Positions 18,697 to 32,542 of a stretch of DNA of 34,202 nucleotides are shown in pieces. A program made the position numbers and the translations under genes. The notes under the pieces are model-generated. The model worked only from the letters and a program-made list of their open reading frames with translations, searched no databases and had not been told where the DNA came from. The DNA lies in the IMG/VR virus record IMGVR_UViG_2531839481_000004, positions 1 through 34,202 of that record; one strand, written 5' to 3'. The DNA is from a virus. Its lineage: Duplodnaviria; Heunggongvirae; Uroviricota; Caudoviricetes. Position 1 is the first letter of the stretch; every line of letters starts with the position of its first letter.

Positions 18697-19724
18697 TGGA
18701 AAAGAGTAAGAAGAACCGCGCTGCGTCGACGAAACAGATCCAGCATAAAAACCAAACTTCAGCCGAAGCATTCAGCTTCGGCGATCCCGTTCCTGTTCTG
18801 GACCGTCGCGAACTGCTGGACTATGTGGAATGCGTACAGATGGATCGCTGGTATGAGCCGCCTGTGAGTTTCGACGGCCTGGCGCGAACCTTCCGCGCCG
18901 CCGTACACCACAGCTCACCGATTGCAGTAAAGTGCAACATTCTGACCAGCACCTATATCCCTCACCCGCTGCTCAGCCAGCAGGCTTTTTCACGTTTTGT
19001 GCAGGACTATCTGGTATTTGGTAACGCCTACCTGGAGAAACGCACGAACCGCTTCGGTGAAGTTATCGCCCTTGAACCTGCGCTGGCAAAATACACCCGA
19101 CGCGGATTAGACCTGGATACCTACTGGTTTGTGCAATACGGCATGACCACGCAGCCGTATCAGTTCACGAAAGGCAGCATTTTTCATCTGATGGAACCGG
19201 ACATCAACCAGGAGATCTACGGCCTGCCAGGCTATCTTTCTGCCATTCCATCCGCCCTGCTCAACGAGTCTGCCACGCTGTTCCGCCGTAAGTATTACAT
19301 CAACGGCAGCCATGCAGGCTTCATCATGTACATGACCGACGCCGCGCAGAATCAGGAGGATGTGAACAATCTCCGCAACGCGATGAAAAGCGCCAAAGGT
19401 CCAGGCAACTTCCGCAACCTGTTTATGTACTCGCCTAACGGCAAAAAGGACGGCCTTCAGATCATCCCTTTGTCAGAAGTTGCGGCGAAGGATGAGTTTC
19501 TGAATATCAAAAATGTCAGCCGCGATGACATGATGGCAGCACATCGCGTTCCGCCACAGATGATGGGGCTTATGCCAAGTAATGTTGGGGGATTTGGGGA
19601 TGTGGAAAAAGCGAGTTTAGTGTTTGTTCGCAATGAGTTAATCCCCCTTCAAAAAAGATTTGAGGAGCTGAATGAATGGATAGAAGAAACAGTAATTAAG
19701 TTTAATGAATATAAATTAAATTGA
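18696..19724 (+). CDS. portal protein gpQ
   Basis: ~343 aa; ATG overlaps the P stop (tgATGg). Confidence 0.9.
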   Translation: MEKSKKNRAASTKQIQHKNQTSAEAFSFGDPVPVLDRRELLDYVECVQMDRWYEPPVSFDGLARTFRAAVHHSSPIAVKCNILTSTYIPHPLLSQQAFSRFVQDYLVFGNAYLEKRTNRFGEVIALEPALAKYTRRGLDLDTYWFVQYGMTTQPYQFTKGSIFHLMEPDINQEIYGLPGYLSAIPSALLNESATLFRRKYYINGSHAGFIMYMTDAAQNQEDVNNLRNAMKSAKGPGNFRNLFMYSPNGKKDGLQIIPLSEVAAKDEFLNIKNVSRDDMMAAHRVPPQMMGLMPSNVGGFGDVEKASLVFVRNELIPLQKRFEELNEWIEETVIKFNEYKLN

Positions 19725-19727
19725 TTA

Positions 19728-19759
19728 ATTCAGTAGTAGCAACTTTAAAGGCGCTACTA
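19728..19759. terminator. bidirectional hairpin between convergent Q and the NTPase gene
   Basis: perfect 10-bp stem cagtagtagc/gctactactg with a 12-nt loop. Confidence 0.4.
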
Positions 19760-19770
19760 CTGAACAAACA

Positions 19771-21435
19771 CTATAAATTGAATTTATGCATTCTTAACTC
19801 ATTCAATTTACTCTCTCTAGAAATCTTCATTAAAGCAGCCTTAGCTTTTATAGAAACAGATCTCGTTTTCTCATTTACATTACCAATACGACTAAATTTC
19901 AGACAAGTAGCAACGTGGGATGTTAAATGATTCCCATGCAAACTTTTAAAATAATGATAATAATCATCTTCAGTAGCGCTACTTAATACTTCTATATCAT
20001 CATCATTCCAGCCATTTTTTCCACTGAGCGCATCCAACACCTCACCTAAAGTGCGCTTGGGTGAATCAGTTAGATACACACCTTTAAATTTCTCAATGAT
20101 TTCTGCATCTTTGATTGGTCTAAAAAGATAAAAATTATCCAGATCAAATAACTCTATTTCACTTCGTCTTTCTTGAATATAATACGTAATCATCTCAGAT
20201 GCCTTTGTATCTTCTCCTAGTTCACGGAAGACCCCAACAAGGCTATCAAGATCATTAGGAGATACTTGAGTTACACAATCCATAAAGCACTTATAAAAAT
20301 GAGAAACAACTTCTTCTACATTATCATCAAAACTATTATGAAATAAATCCCATGCACTTCTAAATGAGTTTGACTTTTTATTTTCTAAAGCCTGTTTATT
20401 TATAATTTTTATTGCCTCATTAAACTCTGTCATATCTATATAACCATTCCTGACTAGCTTTGCTATTTTCCTATCCAGCTCATCAACCCTTGTAAAATTA
20501 TAGCTCAGTAAAATATCCTTCCATTTTTTTTCTTCTTCTGTTACATCCTTTTTGCCTATTGAGTAAATACTTTCCATAGATTCGAGGAAATCCAAAGAGG
20601 GAACATCCTTATCTGATTTAGAGCAATAATAGGCCCAATTCATTAATACAACCGTATGCAAAAATTGCATTTTAACTTCACTTTCGCACTCTTCAAAAGC
20701 TCGCCATGCATTTTCTACGTTTCGCTCTATTTTCTTTAAAACTCTAATATTTTTGATGCCTAACGAAATAGTATATTGTGCTAACGGCTTATGAAAATCC
20801 TTACTATTATCATATGCTATCTGTGCAGATTCACTGGGCGTAGGTGAAAAATGCAACTCAATGTCAATTACTTTTTCTTTAAACTTTTCATAATCAGCAA
20901 CTTCTTTAGTACCATCATTGAGTAAAAGTATAACCTTACATTTCTTTTGTTCTTTTAACAAAGAAATAAGACCTAATACATCTTTAAGTTCTAATGACGA
21001 TCCTTTACGCTCTAAATCATCTATGCAAATTAATGAATCTGACACAGACATAAATGACCATGCTTCTATTGCAGGAGCGGCAGACTTTATATACGGCAGC
21101 TCTTTCAATTTACTCCACGAACCTCGCCCCAATATTTCAAGCATACCTAATGTATTTTTTCTTAAACTATCTAGACTTGGCTCATGTCCTATGGAGTCTT
21201 TTGAAACTGCATTTTCAAAAATGGAATATTTTAATCTATCTAACGAAGATATACCGAAAAGAGAGACATAGGAATAATGCGAAGCAGAAATCATATTTTG
21301 ACACTTTGCTTCCAGAAGAAACTTATTCCAACTAAATGTCTTACCAACTCCCCACTCTCCTTTAATTGCCATAACCGAAGGGGCTGATTTAGAAACAAAG
21401 TTTAGAATTTGTTCTCGTACCAAGCTTAGCGACAT
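19771..21435 (-). CDS. KAP-type P-loop NTPase (554 aa), accessory cargo gene
   Basis: Walker A GEWGVGKT (aa 26-33, nt ~21337-21360), Walker B-like LICIDDLER, no obvious TM helices, AT-rich, ATG with AAGGAG SD. Confidence 0.7.
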   Translation of the reverse strand: MSLSLVREQILNFVSKSAPSVMAIKGEWGVGKTFSWNKFLLEAKCQNMISASHYSYVSLFGISSLDRLKYSIFENAVSKDSIGHEPSLDSLRKNTLGMLEILGRGSWSKLKELPYIKSAAPAIEAWSFMSVSDSLICIDDLERKGSSLELKDVLGLISLLKEQKKCKVILLLNDGTKEVADYEKFKEKVIDIELHFSPTPSESAQIAYDNSKDFHKPLAQYTISLGIKNIRVLKKIERNVENAWRAFEECESEVKMQFLHTVVLMNWAYYCSKSDKDVPSLDFLESMESIYSIGKKDVTEEEKKWKDILLSYNFTRVDELDRKIAKLVRNGYIDMTEFNEAIKIINKQALENKKSNSFRSAWDLFHNSFDDNVEEVVSHFYKCFMDCVTQVSPNDLDSLVGVFRELGEDTKASEMITYYIQERRSEIELFDLDNFYLFRPIKDAEIIEKFKGVYLTDSPKRTLGEVLDALSGKNGWNDDDIEVLSSATEDDYYHYFKSLHGNHLTSHVATCLKFSRIGNVNEKTRSVSIKAKAALMKISRESKLNELRMHKFNL

Positions 21436-21528
21436 AACTCACTCCTTGATTGCGAATGTTAATTATATATTTTACCAAAAATCTTAATCACCACCTATAG
21501 AAAGGTGAAAGATGGGTGCTGGCGCGCG

Positions 21529-21547
21529 CTCGTATCCCCGCCACGCC
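21529..21547 (-). other. candidate cos cohesive-end sequence
   Basis: minus strand GGCGTGGCGGGGATACGAG followed by CGCGCGC; first 13 nt identical to the remembered 186 cohesive end, orientation relative to Q as in P2. Confidence 0.45.
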
Positions 21548-21569
21548 TGCCCGCTTTATGTAGTGGTTT

Positions 21570-21672
21570 TCATGCACCTGCATGTTCTACGTAAAAGCCC
21601 GCTAGTTCTGGCGAGCCTTAGCAAAAACGATCCTTAAACGATCATGCGATTTCATGCAGCATAGTCATGCAC
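21570..21672. repeat. cluster of four TCATGC(A) motifs including the palindrome CATGCACCTGCATG
   Basis: copies at ~21570, 21642, 21652 and 21665; palindrome at 21571-21584. Confidence 0.3.
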
Positions 21673-21869
21673 TGTCTAAGAGAAGTGAAAGTCCGTATCT
21701 GAATGACCACTTGAGAAACGAAACATACAGACTTACAAAGATGAAGCTCTACTGTGAGCGAGGAACATACATAGTTGCTCTGTAATAGCCAAATTTTAAG
21801 CAGGAAATCTCTTTTTTATGACAAAACTATAAAGAAAAACAGACCGTTTCATCGCTCGATGAAAATATA

Positions 21870-23447
21870 CTACAATACTTTTCTCTCGATGGTATTTTTA
21901 ATGGTCAACATATCTTTAGGAATACTTTTTTTCCCCTCTATACGTATGGTAAACACAAAAAGAATAACGGCTGATCTCACAATTTTCATGAGTTGTAAGA
22001 GCTGTTTCTCAAACTTTTCTTTCTCAATAAACCTCACCTCATCAAAAAATCCATAAGAATTATATAAATCAACTAACATGTCTTTCTCGTGAATAACTAA
22101 CAGTTTATGTTCTAAATCATTCCTCCATTCTTTAAAAAAAGCAAGCTCACCATTTTTATCATTCAAATCCATAGCAATACTAAACAAACCCAGCAATCCT
22201 TTATTATTTATTTTGTTTATTTTAAGCTTTCTTTTTTCATCACTAATCCGCCAGAAGTTATGAAAGTATATATGTCCTCTATCTGGTTTTAAATCAAATA
22301 ATTGACACAGAGCAACTGCTATTTTATCCAAGATACCAAAGCAAGCTCTAAATGCAACCCTTAACTTCTCAACATTTTCATACAATATTTCTCCATTATA
22401 CAATTCAGAATAACATACCTCCGAATCCTCATCAAAAAACTCACTATCAACCTTATATTCAAAAAACATTTTTCGTGCTAAGGAATACTCAGCTTTAAGT
22501 CTATTTAACACCATTTCCATTGGCACTATAAAATCACCAAACACACCTTCCTCGGTGGTCGCAATAGTTATATTATCTTTAGATGACGCATAACAATTGC
22601 AATATAGCGAATGATCAGACAACATTAGATTATTATCTATACAAAACCTCTGGTAGTTTGATAAAGTATCATACTCCTCCTGCGTGAGCCTTTCATCTGT
22701 ACTTATATCCTCTATGCCATATACACATGATTCACTCAATATACTTTCGTTGTACTTTATTTTTCTTTGAAGAGCAACCTTCCATGAAGGAAAACATTTC
22801 CCTGACTTTATTGCACACTCATAACCTCGAATAACTTCTTTAATCATTTTATATGTATATGTTGTAGATAATTCATTAAGCAATTCTAATGCCTCAGATC
22901 TGTTTACCCACGCCTGAGGAATTGAGTTATCAATAGATATTGCTTGTTCATAATAATCCATTGATTCAGACATACGATATTGTTTTTTTAATACATTAGC
23001 TAGATTAACTATTAAATCAGGGGGCACCCATCCATCTTCTTGTGAAAGTTTAAACGCTTTCCAGTAATTATTTTTTACATCATTCAGCTTAATGAAACTA
23101 TCAATATCTGCATTGTCATTAGGATTAAAATCAAGAACTGCGCTCATTCCATTTGCCAAGTTATAGTAATATAAGGATTCTTTCATTATAGTCAGAAATT
23201 CATTTTTATTGTTTATAAAGATATTTAAGCCTTCCTCCGCTATATTTTTTACATTACTAAAATTTCCGATATCAATAAGATTTCCGGCCAAATTAGATAA
23301 TATAATTATTCTATTTTCTTTGATTGTATTTATCTCATCGATACCGTTAAGAATATCCTTTACATTTTTATAGGCAGAATCAAATGAACCTGCATTAATA
23401 AGATCATCTACGACCCCCATTTTTGAAACAACATAGTTGATATCCAT
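21870..23447 (-). CDS. 525-aa protein with helical-repeat N-terminal region and C-terminal HEPN-like domain (Rx4H motif WRNDLEHK), accessory cargo gene
   Basis: ATG with AGAGGA SD; strongly AT-rich; R442-x4-H447 motif (nt ~22107-22124); occupies the tin/old position between cos and A. Confidence 0.65.
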   Translation of the reverse strand: MDINYVVSKMGVVDDLINAGSFDSAYKNVKDILNGIDEINTIKENRIIILSNLAGNLIDIGNFSNVKNIAEEGLNIFINNKNEFLTIMKESLYYYNLANGMSAVLDFNPNDNADIDSFIKLNDVKNNYWKAFKLSQEDGWVPPDLIVNLANVLKKQYRMSESMDYYEQAISIDNSIPQAWVNRSEALELLNELSTTYTYKMIKEVIRGYECAIKSGKCFPSWKVALQRKIKYNESILSESCVYGIEDISTDERLTQEEYDTLSNYQRFCIDNNLMLSDHSLYCNCYASSKDNITIATTEEGVFGDFIVPMEMVLNRLKAEYSLARKMFFEYKVDSEFFDEDSEVCYSELYNGEILYENVEKLRVAFRACFGILDKIAVALCQLFDLKPDRGHIYFHNFWRISDEKRKLKINKINNKGLLGLFSIAMDLNDKNGELAFFKEWRNDLEHKLLVIHEKDMLVDLYNSYGFFDEVRFIEKEKFEKQLLQLMKIVRSAVILFVFTIRIEGKKSIPKDMLTIKNTIERKVL

Positions 23448-23688
23448 TCAATCCTCTTTAAACTAAGCTAATAATACCAATCATTATATGGATGAGATCA
23501 ATATAGAACATGCCATCTCCGGCAAAAATCGTACTACATCAGACCAGTGCCCTTCAAATAATATAAATTGAACTTAGATACTTCTGCTTCAACCAGTGTG
23601 TTAAATCCATCGCTTGAACTCAGAACAAAAAGCGGACGATCACTTATCAAAATGGCCGTCCACCTAACGCCTCGTTTCACTCGTTGCC

Positions 23689-23725
23689 CAAAATAGTCCC
23701 CCATCAGAATGAATCCTCTTGGGGG
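23689..23725 (-). terminator. possible terminator after the DinI-like gene
   Basis: ccccc-N18-ggggg hairpin followed on the minus strand by actattttg. Confidence 0.3.
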
Positions 23726-23734
23726 CAACGTTTC

Positions 23735-23968
23735 TTAATGCAGCCAGCTGTCGTCTTCCCACACCTTCTGCATAATTTTCATCACTTGCTTCCTTTCTTC
23801 GTCCAGTTGCAGTCCGGTTAGTTCCACACCGTTAGAGCTACCTTTGCGAATGCGAATTACCGTTTTGGGATACAGGGGGCGCAGATTGCGGTAAAGCTCG
23901 GATTCAAGGGCGTCCAGGGTAGACTGGCTAATCTTCTGCTCTTTATCGATCATTATTTCAATGCGCAT
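23735..23968 (-). CDS. DinI-like protein (77 aa)
   Basis: MRIEIMIDK...LDALESEL...QKVWEDDSW resembles E. coli DinI; ATG with GAGGTGA SD. Confidence 0.75.
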   Translation of the reverse strand: MRIEIMIDKEQKISQSTLDALESELYRNLRPLYPKTVIRIRKGSSNGVELTGLQLDEERKQVMKIMQKVWEDDSWLH

Positions 23969-23978
23969 AAAAGTCACC

Positions 23979-24167
23979 TCAGCTGATGACATCCATTGAG
24001 CGGTTGTATTCGTGGGTTCTGATTTTTGCCATGAGTTCATCTGTTAGTTCAGAAACCCACTGCAAAGCCAGCCCCTTCTCTTCATCACTACACTCACTAG
24101 CCGCTACAAGCTTAAGAAAAAAATCAATGCGCTGGAGCTTCAAAGACTCCAAAAAATAGTCCTGCAT
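23979..24167 (-). CDS. small protein (62 aa) under a LexA box, tum-like SOS module
   Basis: ATG with AGGAGG SD 5 nt upstream; LexA box 44-59 bp upstream. Confidence 0.5.
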   Translation of the reverse strand: MQDYFLESLKLQRIDFFLKLVAASECSDEEKGLALQWVSELTDELMAKIRTHEYNRSMDVIS

Positions 24168-24210
24168 CTTTCCTCCTATGACACCACAAGCAATACTGTA
24201 TGCATATCCA

Positions 24211-24226
24211 CTGTTTATATTTACAG
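24211..24226. promoter_or_regulatory. LexA (SOS) box CTGT-N8-ACAG overlapping a promoter
   Basis: ctgtttatatttacag, close to the consensus CTGTATATATATACAG; minus-strand TATACT -10-like hexamer abuts and overlaps the box by 1 nt. Confidence 0.6.
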
Positions 24227-24320
24227 TATATAATAATCTTACTGATGTAAAACGTTTTTTTACGTTCATCAGCCTGATATGCCTGGTATTATTAAGAGCA
24301 CGAATTGTTAACCCGCGTAA

Positions 24321-26735
24321 TTAATACAGGTTTCGCCACTTATCATCTTCCTGCAAACGCTGGTTCCGATAGAAGATACGCAGGCCTGCTCCTGACGGAA
24401 TACTGCCGCCGCGAAGGAGTAAATCGACCTCTTTCTCGCTGCCATTAAATCCTCTGGACTTCAGTTCATAGACGAGCTGCTGTCGCTGATGGTCTGTAAT
24501 TCGCTGTTTGTAGTCTTTACGCCGTTTCGGTTTCACCAGGCGTAACCTTGCAGCCAGTTCCCTGCGCTCTTTTTTGCTCATACTGTGCAGGTAATCGTGC
24601 AACTCCTTGTCATCCATGCGGATAATGTCCGTTCTGGTGTCCCCATCAGCTGATTTATCTTTCTCCTGTTGGTTCAAATTTTCAGCAAGGGGACAGTTAT
24701 TGCCACGAGTCCAAGGGGCGCAAGCGCCCTGGTCGGCTGCCGCCTCCTGAACGTCAACGGCCTTACGAACCATTTTCCACTTCACGGCATGAGTGCAGAT
24801 TTTGCCCTCTGCAATGGGTGACCAGATGCCATAAATACGAATGCCGTGATCGCCATAGGCGGTCGGCTCTTCGTTGATTTCATAAGCGGTTCTGATGAGG
24901 TGATATTTACGGGGAACCAGTACGCCGCCCTGCTTCATGATGTAGGTGGCAAAACAACCAGCATCAGCTGCAGCCAGAATGGCATCAAGGCGCGGGTTAT
25001 CCAGTACCGGCGCACCTGCTTTTTTGTCACCCTGTTGCCTTGCCGCCTGACCAGCCAGCAATCGCAGTTCACGGTAAGCCTGACGCCCCGGAATGCCAAA
25101 GAAGCGGAATTGCTGAACACGATGCAGAGACGCCCAGGCATTAACGTATTCAGCGTTATCACGCAGAGATTTACCCGTTTCCTTGCTGATCTCGCCAGCC
25201 AGACCACGCCCGTCAATGTTCTTACTGATGTATTTCGCGATGTAGCTAGTCGGCGTTCCTTTGCGCGGGTTTATCAGCTCAGACTTAAAGCGTGGCCCCG
25301 TGTTATTACCCAGCTCCTCGCGGTCTTCACGGATAGCAAACTTACGCAACAATGCAGTAATGGCGCGGCGGTCTTTTTTGCGCATGAAACACAACAGGTG
25401 CCAGTGAACTGTGCCGTCATGATGCGGCTCAGCCACCCGCACGCCATACCAGCGCAACCCGGCTTTGTGCATCGCCTTACGAAATGCAGCAAACATGCCG
25501 ACCAGATAATCACTGCTTTGTCTTACCGTCGCATTTGTCCAGGTCGGGTTGGGCCTACCGTTATTTAGCGTGGAATGGAAACGTGACGGACAGGTGATGG
25601 TGTAGAAAACGGCGCAGTCACCGCGCATTTCCGCGATAAGCTCCAGACCTTTAACACAGGCCATCATCTCATTGCGGCGATGCGCAGGGTTGCTGCTGCT
25701 GGCGTTTACCACATCCTCCATGTCCAGCGTGTCGCCGTCTTCGTTCACCAGTTCATGAGAACGGAAAAACTCCAGCGACTTACGGCGCTGCTCACGTTTA
25801 TGCATCACGGCTTCATAGCTGACATAGGGAGATGCTTTTTTGCTGACCAGGCAAACAGCACGCAACTGCTCTTCCCGCCATTCGCAACGCATCTTCCACA
25901 ATTTCCGATACCACCAGTCGGCGCACAGCATACGCGCCAGCGACCCCGGAATGAGTTCATAGGGCACGGGTTTACGGCGGTTTCTTTTCCGGCGGAGTTG
26001 CTCAAACGCAGGCGGTATGACATCCAGTCGCAGGGTTTCCGCCGCCACCTTTTCCCATGTCTTGCGGATTTCTTCTGGCTTAACGTCATCGGTGGCATAC
26101 AAATCGCCACAAGCGGCATCAAGGCACATGCTCATATGCGCAGCTACCAGGGTGGACAGGCGTTTCACCTGATCCTGACTCATTTCAGGCAGGATCAGCA
26201 GACCGTCCAGCCCTTCATGGCTTGCCATAAAGCGAAAAGAAGTGGATAGCTGACTGTCGCGTACATGCTCCAGTCGTTCCAGACATGGCTTAATCGTCTC
26301 ACGCAAATAGCGGGAATAAGCCTTTGGCCTGCCCAGGCTGCTGAAGTATTCAATACGTTGCATCAGCGGCTTGCTGATATGGGAAGGCTGGGCGTTAACG
26401 TCCGCCAGAATGACCATGCCCGGATTAAAACGCTGCTGCTCATGCGCCAGCTTTGCCCGGCTAATGAGCTTATCCTGCTCCATTTCGCGCTGGACAGGAT
26501 CACGTGATTCATTAAAGAAATAACGCTCCCATACCTGATCACTCAGAGCCTCGCGGCGCAGTTGTTCCTGCTCGTTATCGGTAGCGTACAGAGTGATCAG
26601 GTTTGAAAGCGCAGAAACCGGCGCAACTTCCGCCGGGTCCAGATAAGGGTTAATGGCCTTTTTCGGGCTGTTCCATGAGAATGCTGCGGCGACCTCGTTA
26701 AAGCCGCTGCAGTTGTTCATATCAGCATGGCTCAT
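24321..26735 (-). CDS. replication initiation protein A (rolling-circle nickase, P2 gpA family)
   Basis: [13 protein letters not shown] and [13 protein letters not shown] motifs shared with P2 A. Confidence 0.9.
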
Positions 26736-30716: not shown

Positions 30717-31733
30717 ATGACTGTCAGAAAACAGCCAAACGGTAAATGGTTGTGCGAGTGCTATCCCAATGGACGCAATGGCAAGCGCGTGCGTAAGCAA
30801 TTTGCTACGAAAGGCGAAGCCATTGCTTTTGAAAGCTTCACAATGGAAGAAGTGAACAAAAAACCATGGCTGGGGGAAAAGGAAGATCGGCGACACCTAT
30901 CAGAATTAATTGAGCAGTGGTATTCCCTGTATGGTCAAACACTCGCAGACCCCAAGCGCCTCATAGCGAAACTTAGAATTATCTGTAATGGTCTAGGCGA
31001 TCCCATCGCTTCAGAACTGACAGCCGGTGACTTTACGAAATACCGCGAAGCACGGTTAAAAGGTGAAGTACGAAATGAAGATGGCACGTTTATGTCGCCC
31101 GTTAAGCCCCGCACGGTAAACCTTGAACAGCGCAATCTATCATCTGTTTTTGGTACACTGAAAAAGCTGGGCCACTGGTCAGCCCCCAACCCGCTTGCTG
31201 GGCTGCCAACATTTAAAATTGCTGAGAGTGAATTGGCGTTCCTGACCCCGGAAGAAATTAAACGTCTGCTGGATGCCTGCGCCGATTCTCAAAGCTCCAG
31301 CCTGCTTTTGATTGCAAAAATATGCCTGGCCACCGGCGCACGCTGGAGCGAAGCCGAAAACCTGCAGAGTCATCAGGTATCAAAATACCGTATCACTTAT
31401 ACCAAGACCAAAGGCAAGAAAAACCGAACTGTGCCTATTTCTAAGGATTTATATGAAGAACTGCCTAAGAATAGGGGGAAGTTATTCACCCCATGCAGAA
31501 AAGCCTTTGAGCGTGCAGTAAAGCGGGCTGGTATCGATCTGCCAGAGGGTCAATGTACTCACGTTCTGCGTCATACATTCGCTAGCCATTTTATGATGAA
31601 TGGTGGAAACATATTGGTTTTGCGGGATATCCTAGGACATTCAGATATAAAAATGACCATGGTCTATGCACACTTCGCCCCAGACCATTTAGAAGATGCC
31701 GTAACTAAAAATCCTTTATTTAATTTGAGGTAA
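30717..31733 (+). CDS. int: tyrosine integrase
   Basis: 338 aa, C-terminal HVLRHTFASHF...LGHSDIKMTMVYAH catalytic region (R..HxxR..Y). Confidence 0.9.
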   Translation: MTVRKQPNGKWLCECYPNGRNGKRVRKQFATKGEAIAFESFTMEEVNKKPWLGEKEDRRHLSELIEQWYSLYGQTLADPKRLIAKLRIICNGLGDPIASELTAGDFTKYREARLKGEVRNEDGTFMSPVKPRTVNLEQRNLSSVFGTLKKLGHWSAPNPLAGLPTFKIAESELAFLTPEEIKRLLDACADSQSSSLLLIAKICLATGARWSEAENLQSHQVSKYRITYTKTKGKKNRTVPISKDLYEELPKNRGKLFTPCRKAFERAVKRAGIDLPEGQCTHVLRHTFASHFMMNGGNILVLRDILGHSDIKMTMVYAHFAPDHLEDAVTKNPLFNLR

Positions 31734-31743
31734 GTAGTAATTT

Positions 31744-32412
31744 ATGAATAGCGAACTAGAGTTACTTATAAAAATATTATTCTCTTCCCTATCTGCCATT
31801 ATATCCTTATTAGGGCTTAAAACAGGGTGGACTTATAAAAAAGACAAACTATTCACATCACGTAAAAACATTAGCGAATTTTCATATCAGATGTATAAAA
31901 GCAGTGAAGATCCGACCTTCAAAAAACTGGCGGAAGATTACGGCATTGCTGCATTAACCAAAGATAACACATTGACAAAAAAACAAAGATTAATATTACT
32001 CAACACAACAAACCCCGTTAGCGATATAGATGATTATTCCAAATGTCAAAGTCTAATTTCCATTACCACCCATAAAGAAATATTCGCATGGAATAAAAAA
32101 AGATATAAATACAGCATATATAGAAAATTAATAAAAATTATAACAACTCTAATTTACTTCATGGGCAGTCTCATCGTAGCACTTCCTTTCAGTTATTCTG
32201 TTGTAGTAAGTGCTAAGATGATGGAGAAGATAAACCATCTAACTACTTGGCAATACTTTGGTTTAAGCAGCTATTTTGTGGTATCGGGAGTAGCAATATG
32301 CTTTATCTGCCTAGATAAGCTCTCCAAGATTAAGATCGCCGAGAGATTAATCGTTTCAAATAGGCGTTTAGGCGACAAATGCAGTGGCGTCACTTTGGCG
32401 GCAGAAAGTTAA
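31744..32412 (+). CDS. AT-rich membrane protein (222 aa), lysogeny-expressed cargo gene
   Basis: ATG 10 bp after int stop with GAGG SD; three hydrophobic helices; lies between int and attR. Confidence 0.6.
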   Translation: MNSELELLIKILFSSLSAIISLLGLKTGWTYKKDKLFTSRKNISEFSYQMYKSSEDPTFKKLAEDYGIAALTKDNTLTKKQRLILLNTTNPVSDIDDYSKCQSLISITTHKEIFAWNKKRYKYSIYRKLIKIITTLIYFMGSLIVALPFSYSVVVSAKMMEKINHLTTWQYFGLSSYFVVSGVAICFICLDKLSKIKIAERLIVSNRRLGDKCSGVTLAAES

Positions 32413-32497
32413 AAACCCATAAAACGGACAGACACCGCATAAATCTAACCAACTGAAAATCAAAGCAAATCATTGTTTTTACAGACATTGAAATGCT

Positions 32498-32542
32498 ATG
32501 TAGGAATTTCGGACGCGGGTTCAACTCCCGCCAGCTCCACCA
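32498..32542 (+). other. ssrA: attR core: duplicated 3' end of tmRNA (ssrA)
   Basis: ATGTAGGAATTTCGGACGCGGGTTCAACTCCCGCCAGCTCCACCA matches the 3' terminus of E. coli ssrA; upstream sequence does not match ssrA. Confidence 0.8.

Follow-up and report, generated by a model that had tools for sequence, protein, structure and literature searches.

A stand-alone LA2681-family HEPN gene beside cos in a P2-like prophage of Escherichia coli as a candidate anti-phage RNase

Introduction

What kind of cargo is encoded by the very AT-rich gene which, in a P2-like prophage of Escherichia coli, occupies the place where P2 itself carries tin? The question is raised by the IMG/VR record IMGVR_UViG_2531839481_000004, analysed here over its whole length of 34,202 nucleotides (hereafter the window), in which a coding sequence (CDS) for a protein of 525 amino acids (aa) lies at 21870..23447 on the minus strand. 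The original prediction, made from the letters and the list of open reading frames (ORFs), described this gene as a candidate anti-phage RNase with a C-terminal HEPN-like motif, acting alone or with a partner, and left three options for its kinship: ApeA, an LA2681-like TPR-HEPN family, or a family of its own. Here we address which of these options holds, whether the gene forms a system with its neighbours, and which function is best compatible with its architecture and genomic surroundings.

Part of the answer is available from earlier catalogues. Experiments support the gpQ-gpA region of P2-like prophages as a hotspot of anti-phage functions (PMC9122126), and the table of P2 loci compiled by Rousset et al. 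(2022) contains an uncloned entry "HEPN_LA2681 + KAP_NTPase", corresponding to WP_001518831 and WP_001518830, and a sister allele, WP_000354145, listed with other partners. The LA2681 family was defined already in 2013 (PMC3710099), is represented by a Pfam model, and the name given by RefSeq/NCBI to the identical protein is in accord with it. For a specialist it is thus unsurprising to meet an unambiguous representative of a named family at a hotspot already catalogued. What is added here is the single-gene status of this member, the division of the hotspot into two slots around cos, the constant architecture of the family at about 520 aa, and an invariant block of His and Cys residues ahead of the HEPN domain.

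Results

Family assignment and conserved residues

A search with hidden Markov models (HMMs) of Pfam revealed a match to PF18733 (HEPN_LA2681) with E = 1.7e-38 and 132.4 bits against a gathering cut-off of 27, spanning residues 309-504 of the protein and positions 9-204 of the 204 in the profile. The octapeptide WRNDLEHK, in which R442-x4-H447 had been noticed beforehand, is found in the C-terminal part as described: positions 22107..22124 (minus strand) translate to RNDLEH and provide the predicted catalytic motif R442-N443-D-L-E446-H447, that is Rx4H with a polar Asn following the Arg. This corresponds to the published rule, according to which HEPN domains carry Rx4-6H with a polar residue after R and have the motif at the end of helix 3 (PMC3710099). 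By itself the motif is weak evidence, not beyond chance, as Rx4H appears in 17% and R[NDH]x3H in 2.8% of shuffles of the same protein; because it can arise by chance, the HEPN signal rests on the Pfam match together with invariance across homologs. In an alignment of 40 homologs sharing 38-83% identity with the protein, R442, N443, E446 and H447 are invariant, as are M310, E311, N315, R316, K318, E320 and R325, and further E360, R363, C369, F370, G371 and D374.

Database search returned 179 homologs, nearly all of 515-545 aa, aligned over the full length at 38-85% identity and originating from Enterobacterales, Vibrio, Pseudomonas, Cellvibrio, Polaromonas and others; an exhaustive profile search, counted at E <= 1e-30, gave 248 clusters at 50% identity, most of them 500-565 aa long. 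Since the homologs are near-constant in length and covered from end to end, the two-domain architecture is the norm of the family. Apart from the HEPN residues, the 40-sequence alignment discloses an invariant block LS(D/E)HxLYCxC...D at residues 276-291 (S277, H279, Y282, C283, C285 and D291; 22575..22622, minus strand), which falls into a largely non-helical linker ahead of the HEPN domain and outside the PF18733 match. A metal site or a latch, made up jointly with the invariant C369, is conceivable.

Anantharaman et al. (2013) described LA2681 as a family that keeps Rx4-6H and is "fused to TPR" (PMC3710099). The same combination is encountered here: an HMM score above the gathering threshold, an invariant R-N-x-x-E-H signature with the polar residue in place, and a TPR-like solenoid in front of it (see below). 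Assignment of the protein to the LA2681 family, with TPR-like and HEPN parts, is therefore close to certain, and the LA2681-like option is the one to be kept. The supposition of a new family is discarded in view of the PF18733 score, and that of ApeA because neither the Pfam models HEPN_Apea and ApeA_NTD1 nor the ApeA model of PADLOC matches the protein at E <= 1. NCBIfam and PHROGs gave no match for it. Two constructs of Rousset et al. (2022), "HEPN-TPR" (pFR83, P4) and "Putative HEPN" (pFR103, P2), were also compared with the LA2681 protein and rejected as its relatives (BLASTP E > 1).

Predicted structure

The full-length AlphaFold model (predicted local distance difference test score, pLDDT, 87.8; predicted template modelling score, pTM, 0.90) consists of two parts, and the position of the motif in the HEPN part was read from this and a second model with pLDDT of 83.7. 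Residues 1-240 (22728..23447, minus strand) are predicted to form an all-helical TPR-like solenoid of ~12 helices, roughly six hairpins, presumed to be a sensor or oligomerisation module. In a Foldseek search of the PDB with the full-length model the top matches are all TPR proteins (the TPR domain of OGT, CTPR8 and MamA), and the family profile matches TPR chains in the PDB with E down to 3e-18. A single unit, residues 144-186 (DLIVNLANVLKKQYRMSESMDYYEQAISIDNSIPQAWVNRSEA; 22890..23018, minus strand), is the only one fitting the TPR sequence consensus: phmmer aligns it to consensus-TPR structures, and Pfam TPR_10, TPR_8 and TPR_2 match residues 145-174 below threshold. The helical repeats suspected earlier in the N-terminal two-thirds are thus recovered as a TPR-like solenoid in the model and by Foldseek, with a more modest extent of about 46% of the protein.

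The HEPN domain is assigned to residues 307-507 (21927..22529, minus strand). In the model it comprises helix H1 (residues 307-333), helix H2 (357-384), a helical insert (385-436), helix H3 (437-447) with RNDLEH at its end, a beta-hairpin following the motif directly (449-453 and 471-475), as is described for Csx1, and helix H4 (476-507). The HEPN-like four-helix arrangement sought by structure prediction is therefore seen in the model, which agrees with the published HEPN definition as regards the motif at the end of helix 3; both the predicted fold and the motif fit the HEPN superfamily. HepT chains stand near the top of the Foldseek list obtained with the HEPN-domain model, without significance. 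Searches of the PDB by sequence, with the single protein as well as with the family profile, found the TPR unit alone and nothing for the HEPN part, so that, judged by sequence, no LA2681 structure appears to have been solved.

Position of the gene relative to cos

The window represents a P2-like prophage of E. coli. Genes for capsid, terminase and portal proteins lie to one side, those for a DinI-like protein, replication endonuclease A and Dam methylase to the other. The order around the gene in question is portal Q, KAP NTPase, cos, HEPN, DinI (23735-24040) and gpA (gene A, 24321-26735). The exact 19-nt cohesive end of P2 was not found in the window within 3 mismatches, and for this reason cos homology was set by alignment with the cos regions of P2 and E1114. 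The cos-homologous sequence lies at ~21519-21580, where a 29-nt exact match to cos-proximal sequence of another P2-like prophage accompanies the alignment with the P2 cos region, and homology among HEPN-carrying prophages begins at the same point (window ~21517-21523). The earlier placement of the gene in the slot between cos and gene A, the tin/old hotspot of P2, is borne out by these positions; in P2 both old and tin are on the A side of cos. The prophage thus carries the HEPN gene as accessory cargo between cos and DinI/gpA, in the tin position.

An important consequence is that cos splits the gpQ-gpA hotspot into two slots, Q-cos and cos-A, which exchange their cargo independently. Since cos lies between them, the HEPN and KAP genes find themselves at opposite ends of the packaged DNA. 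This two-slot view matters for the choice of neighbouring genes that are to be cloned together.

Distribution and stand-alone status

Among 5,426 complete E. coli genomes, 11 contain the HEPN gene. Every copy is on the chromosome, shows 99.6% identity or more and lies between cos and DinI. Its flanks are matched by 1,279 genomes. Plasmids contain only remote relatives of 22-27% identity. While the cos-HEPN-DinI side is at least 99.5% identical across the 11 genomes, the Q-cos cargo is found in eight different states: the KAP NTPase, a PIN protein or an AIPR protein (two genomes each), and, in one genome each, the retron Ec67 reverse transcriptase, DUF262 with IS2, an AAA ATPase, three hypothetical proteins, and a 120-aa ORF only. 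The last state belongs to E. coli ECONIH5, whose HEPN allele (L024, 4536-6077) matches over 1,577 instead of 1,578 bases and has a shorter annotated protein, probably with the C-terminus truncated by a 1-nt indel.

Beyond E. coli, relatives with 81-83% identity stand by themselves, and their surroundings are unrelated (L025, 5001-6578; L027, 5001-6578; L014-L016, 6001-7578). In Salmonella the gene adjoins the lambdoid antiterminator Q, in Enterobacter it is a lone gene between those for an MFS transporter and a DinB-family protein with no recognisable mobile element, and in Yersinia it resides in a genomic island. In the latter case the flanking pair of 186-aa genes was considered as an inverted duplication, which was ruled out, the two proteins being unrelated. 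Distant homologs are met near AbiE, Fic, HigB-like toxin-antitoxin (TA) pairs, ArdA, Mrr, Cap4 nuclease, HEPN_Swt1, a PAAR toxin and integrases; no partner gene recurs in the loci examined.

Because the portal-side partners vary, cos intervenes and relatives live alone elsewhere, we regard the gene, on comparative genomic grounds, as a self-contained one-gene module, evidently moving as a single-gene cassette between different types of elements. Of the two arrangements initially envisaged, single-gene or partnered, the former is accordingly preferred.

A separate arrangement was noticed in a Citrobacter braakii subclade (40-42% identity; P0093/P0058), in which a gene for a 719-aa protein (L018, 3-2162; L017, 1529-2131) ends 12 nt before the HEPN start. 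Precomputed annotation assigns this protein to DUF8371, and the Pfam scan gave no match; the system may exist here in a two-gene form.

Reading frame, base composition and the neighbouring NTPase gene

The reading frame had been proposed to start from ATG preceded by a Shine-Dalgarno sequence, and this agrees with the ORF list and with AGAGGA at 23452..23457 (minus strand), 5 nt before the ATG; the product is identical to RefSeq WP_001518831.1. The impression of a very AT-rich gene for an Asn/Lys/Ile-rich protein is likewise supported: the GC content of the CDS is 0.309 and that of third codon positions 0.274, versus 0.498 over the whole window, the four most frequent amino acids being Leu, Ile, Asn and Lys. 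The low-GC island extends over ~19500-23500 (GC of 0.29-0.40, with adjoining phage genes at 0.52-0.60) and, contrary to its perception as one gene, consists of two, the second encoding a 554-aa KAP-family P-loop NTPase with Walker A GEWGVGKT (19771..21435, minus strand; ORF list, Pfam and PADLOC).

For the KAP protein, matches were obtained to PDC-S49, a defence candidate of PADLOC (E = 1.1e-29), and to PHROG 4740 (E = 1e-131, function unknown); its NTPase domain is 27% identical to the P4 construct "NOD-1" from Table S2B (additional tested systems) of Rousset et al. It probably represents a separate defence candidate made up of one gene.

As for the spacer between the DinI and HEPN genes, much of it is occupied by a 64-aa ORF starting from TTG (23534-23728, minus strand), which is not annotated by RefSeq and is probably spurious, and it also contains TATAAT, which lacks a convincing -35 counterpart. 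A further stretch of low GC (0.35-0.36), situated at 31501-32500 towards the opposite end of the prophage, may be another accessory or moron locus.

Discussion

Proposed function

The explanation we favour, with a probability of about 0.6, is that the gene encodes a stand-alone LA2681 HEPN protein with an anti-phage abortive-infection function exerted through RNase activity. HEPN domains with intact Rx4-6H are metal-independent RNases that need both R and H for activity (PMC3710099), and HEPN RNases are normally dimers pairing two motifs (PMC13043305; bioRxiv 10.64898/2026.02.22.705581). The single-protein HEPN defences characterised so far, namely HepS, DARNA/PD-T7-3 and ApeA, exist as oligomers that are kept inactive up to the binding of a trigger. 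They then cleave the anticodon loops of tRNA, which HEPN defence proteins of established activity attack most often, and abort infection. The context points in the same direction: the gene lies in the P2 gpQ-gpA hotspot, distant homologs stand beside AbiE, Mrr, Cap4 nuclease and HEPN_Swt1, and DefensePredictor gives an E. coli LA2681-family protein a mean log-odds of 9.1 and the label "Predicted novel defense gene".

By analogy, the protein would be made in the lysogen and held inactive as an autoinhibited oligomer. Upon infection by another phage, the TPR half, which may sense the cue, mediate oligomerisation or do both, would bind a cue supplied by the phage, a protein or peptide most probably; two HEPN domains would thereby be repositioned so that their R442/H447 motifs form a composite metal-independent RNase site. 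Such a site might cut host RNA, phage RNA or both, and this cleavage would stop translation and abort infection. A narrower version, in which the TPR solenoid directly recognises a phage protein and thereby permits cleavage of tRNA or mRNA by an LA2681 HEPN dimer, with H279/C283/C285 serving as a metal or redox latch between sensing and catalysis, is put forward as tentative, at somewhat below even odds; the protein would then be the first tractable member of a single-protein immune family that works with no NTPase switch.

Several observations weigh against the favoured explanation. Only 0.2% of complete E. coli genomes carry the gene, it was not found among 50,697 phage records, and counts from a consensus scan for its promoter equal the shuffled background, so that none is claimed. 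PADLOC v2 has no model for the LA2681 family and returned weak TPR and Csx1 matches only; Foldseek with the HEPN-domain model yielded no significant PDB match (best E = 0.47). The family is not among the cloned sets of Rousset et al. (2022) and DefensePredictor, and in searchable full-text literature no experiment on any of its members was found. A search of the DefensePredictor supplements by accessions and by the peptides WRNDLEHK, PMEMVLNRLK and CFGILDKIA identified one predicted protein and no cloned construct. Besides, in the 8-phage panel of Rousset et al. two non-homologous single-gene hotspot candidates with repeats and HEPN gave no phenotype.

Alternative explanations

Of the other readings, the one in which the protein is a toxin serving the element, either by addiction and post-segregational killing or as a weapon against competing prophages and P4-type satellites, in practice overlaps with abortive infection. 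It appears unlikely, given that no adjacent antitoxin candidate (MNT gene, conserved small ORF, tandem repeats or Rfam match) was found and that the Enterobacter homolog stands alone between housekeeping genes, off recognisable mobile elements. A kindred idea, that an antitoxin is encoded in cis by a small RNA or micro-ORF in the flanks, draws on AbiF-type type III systems, where HEPN proteins are under control of an RNA antitoxin (bioRxiv 10.64898/2026.02.22.705581), and on the ~290-bp conserved non-coding flanks accompanying the gene in E. coli. Searches over window 19500-24400, however, revealed neither tandem repeats (score threshold 30) nor an Rfam match (E <= 1), and direct or inverted repeats of any significance were likewise missing; the sole flank ORF is the unannotated 64-aa one and the downstream flank is the cos region, all of which renders such an antitoxin highly improbable.

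The protein might also have nothing to do with defence, its HEPN domain participating in phage RNA processing or regulation or in non-catalytic binding, with the TPR half as a scaffold. Many HEPN domains are indeed non-catalytic or housekeeping, sacsin and the nucleotidyltransferase-associated HEPN among them, and the lack of a known phenotype counts in the same sense. Yet non-catalytic HEPN families lose the signature (PMC3710099), which here is invariant in full, the gene is an accessory one that most P2-like prophages lack, being present in 11 genomes against the 1,279 matching its flanks, and the slot otherwise holds retrons, Tin/Old and similar cargo; hence a non-defence role is judged to be quite unlikely, and a non-catalytic or housekeeping function in particular unlikely.

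The union of the HEPN and KAP genes into one two-gene system, in which HEPN would be the effector and the NTPase its sensor or switch, is suggested by their adjacency, common strand and shared AT-richness, by the similarity of the KAP protein to a defence candidate and by their pairing in three contigs of the table of Rousset et al. It is essentially refuted, in the main by the partner census and the intervening cos: the KAP gene is present in only two of the 11 HEPN-carrying E. coli genomes, the rest having six other gene sets or almost nothing, the two genes are separated by the cos-homologous sequence and a 434-bp spacer, and homologs of other genera have no KAP neighbour in the loci examined. 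PDC-S49 itself, as we read the "S" in its PADLOC name, is presumably a single-gene candidate, which also counts against the pair.

Significance and comparison with known systems

Should the anti-phage function be validated, it would be the first one for the LA2681 HEPN family, with its ~250 clusters at 50% identity across Proteobacteria, and a compact one-gene sensor-effector, TPR plus HEPN with no NTPase, would join the RNases of abortive infection. Escape phages, which served this purpose for HepS, DARNA and ApeA, would then allow its trigger and RNA target to be mapped. For genome annotation the result is ordinary, the RefSeq name of the protein being already correct.

Among known systems, P2 Tin has the same position, being an AT-rich accessory gene on the gpA side of cos which excludes other phages. 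Tin, however, has neither a HEPN nor a TPR domain, and it was rejected as a homolog, the best BLASTP match to the 525-aa protein having E = 0.038 over 51 residues only. Systems in which a HEPN toxin is bound to an antitoxin differ in their surroundings: HepT/MntA (type VII TA) has an adjacent gene for the MNT antitoxin, whereas here the neighbours are the DinI-like gene and, across cos, the KAP NTPase, and the tandem repeat array of antitoxin RNA typical of AbiF-type type III TA has no counterpart in 19500-24400.

Single-protein HEPN defences offer another comparison. HepS from the Salmonella prophage Gifsy-1 is a prophage-encoded, single-gene, constitutive HEPN abortive-infection anticodon nuclease, switched on when a phage structural protein binds to it directly, with Rx4H sites pairing across protomers (PMC13043305). 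It is, however, a stand-alone HEPN of <250 aa that senses through the HEPN tetramer itself with no separate module, and its authors left longer or multidomain proteins out of the HepS family (PMC13043305), while the protein described here has 525 aa with a 240-residue repeat domain. ApeA (Gao_Ape) is likewise a single-protein HEPN, forming large oligomers and cleaving tRNA anticodon loops, with a ligand site away from the active centre and a small-molecule deoxydinucleotide as trigger (bioRxiv 10.64898/2026.01.26.701840); its N-terminal domain differs from the TPR-like half considered here. In DARNA the order of parts is reversed, HEPN at residues 1-159 being followed by a Pds5/HEAT-like domain, as opposed to solenoid and then HEPN (bioRxiv 10.64898/2026.02.22.705581). 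The dodecameric state and the single-stranded DNA trigger presented by the phage single-stranded DNA-binding protein are features of DARNA, the present protein being known from its sequence and model; for DARNA (PD-T7-3), PADLOC gave no match to it beyond the weak TPR and Csx1 ones. From the LA2681-like HEPN proteins of PF18733, in turn, the 525-aa protein shows no structural difference, being itself a member of this family.

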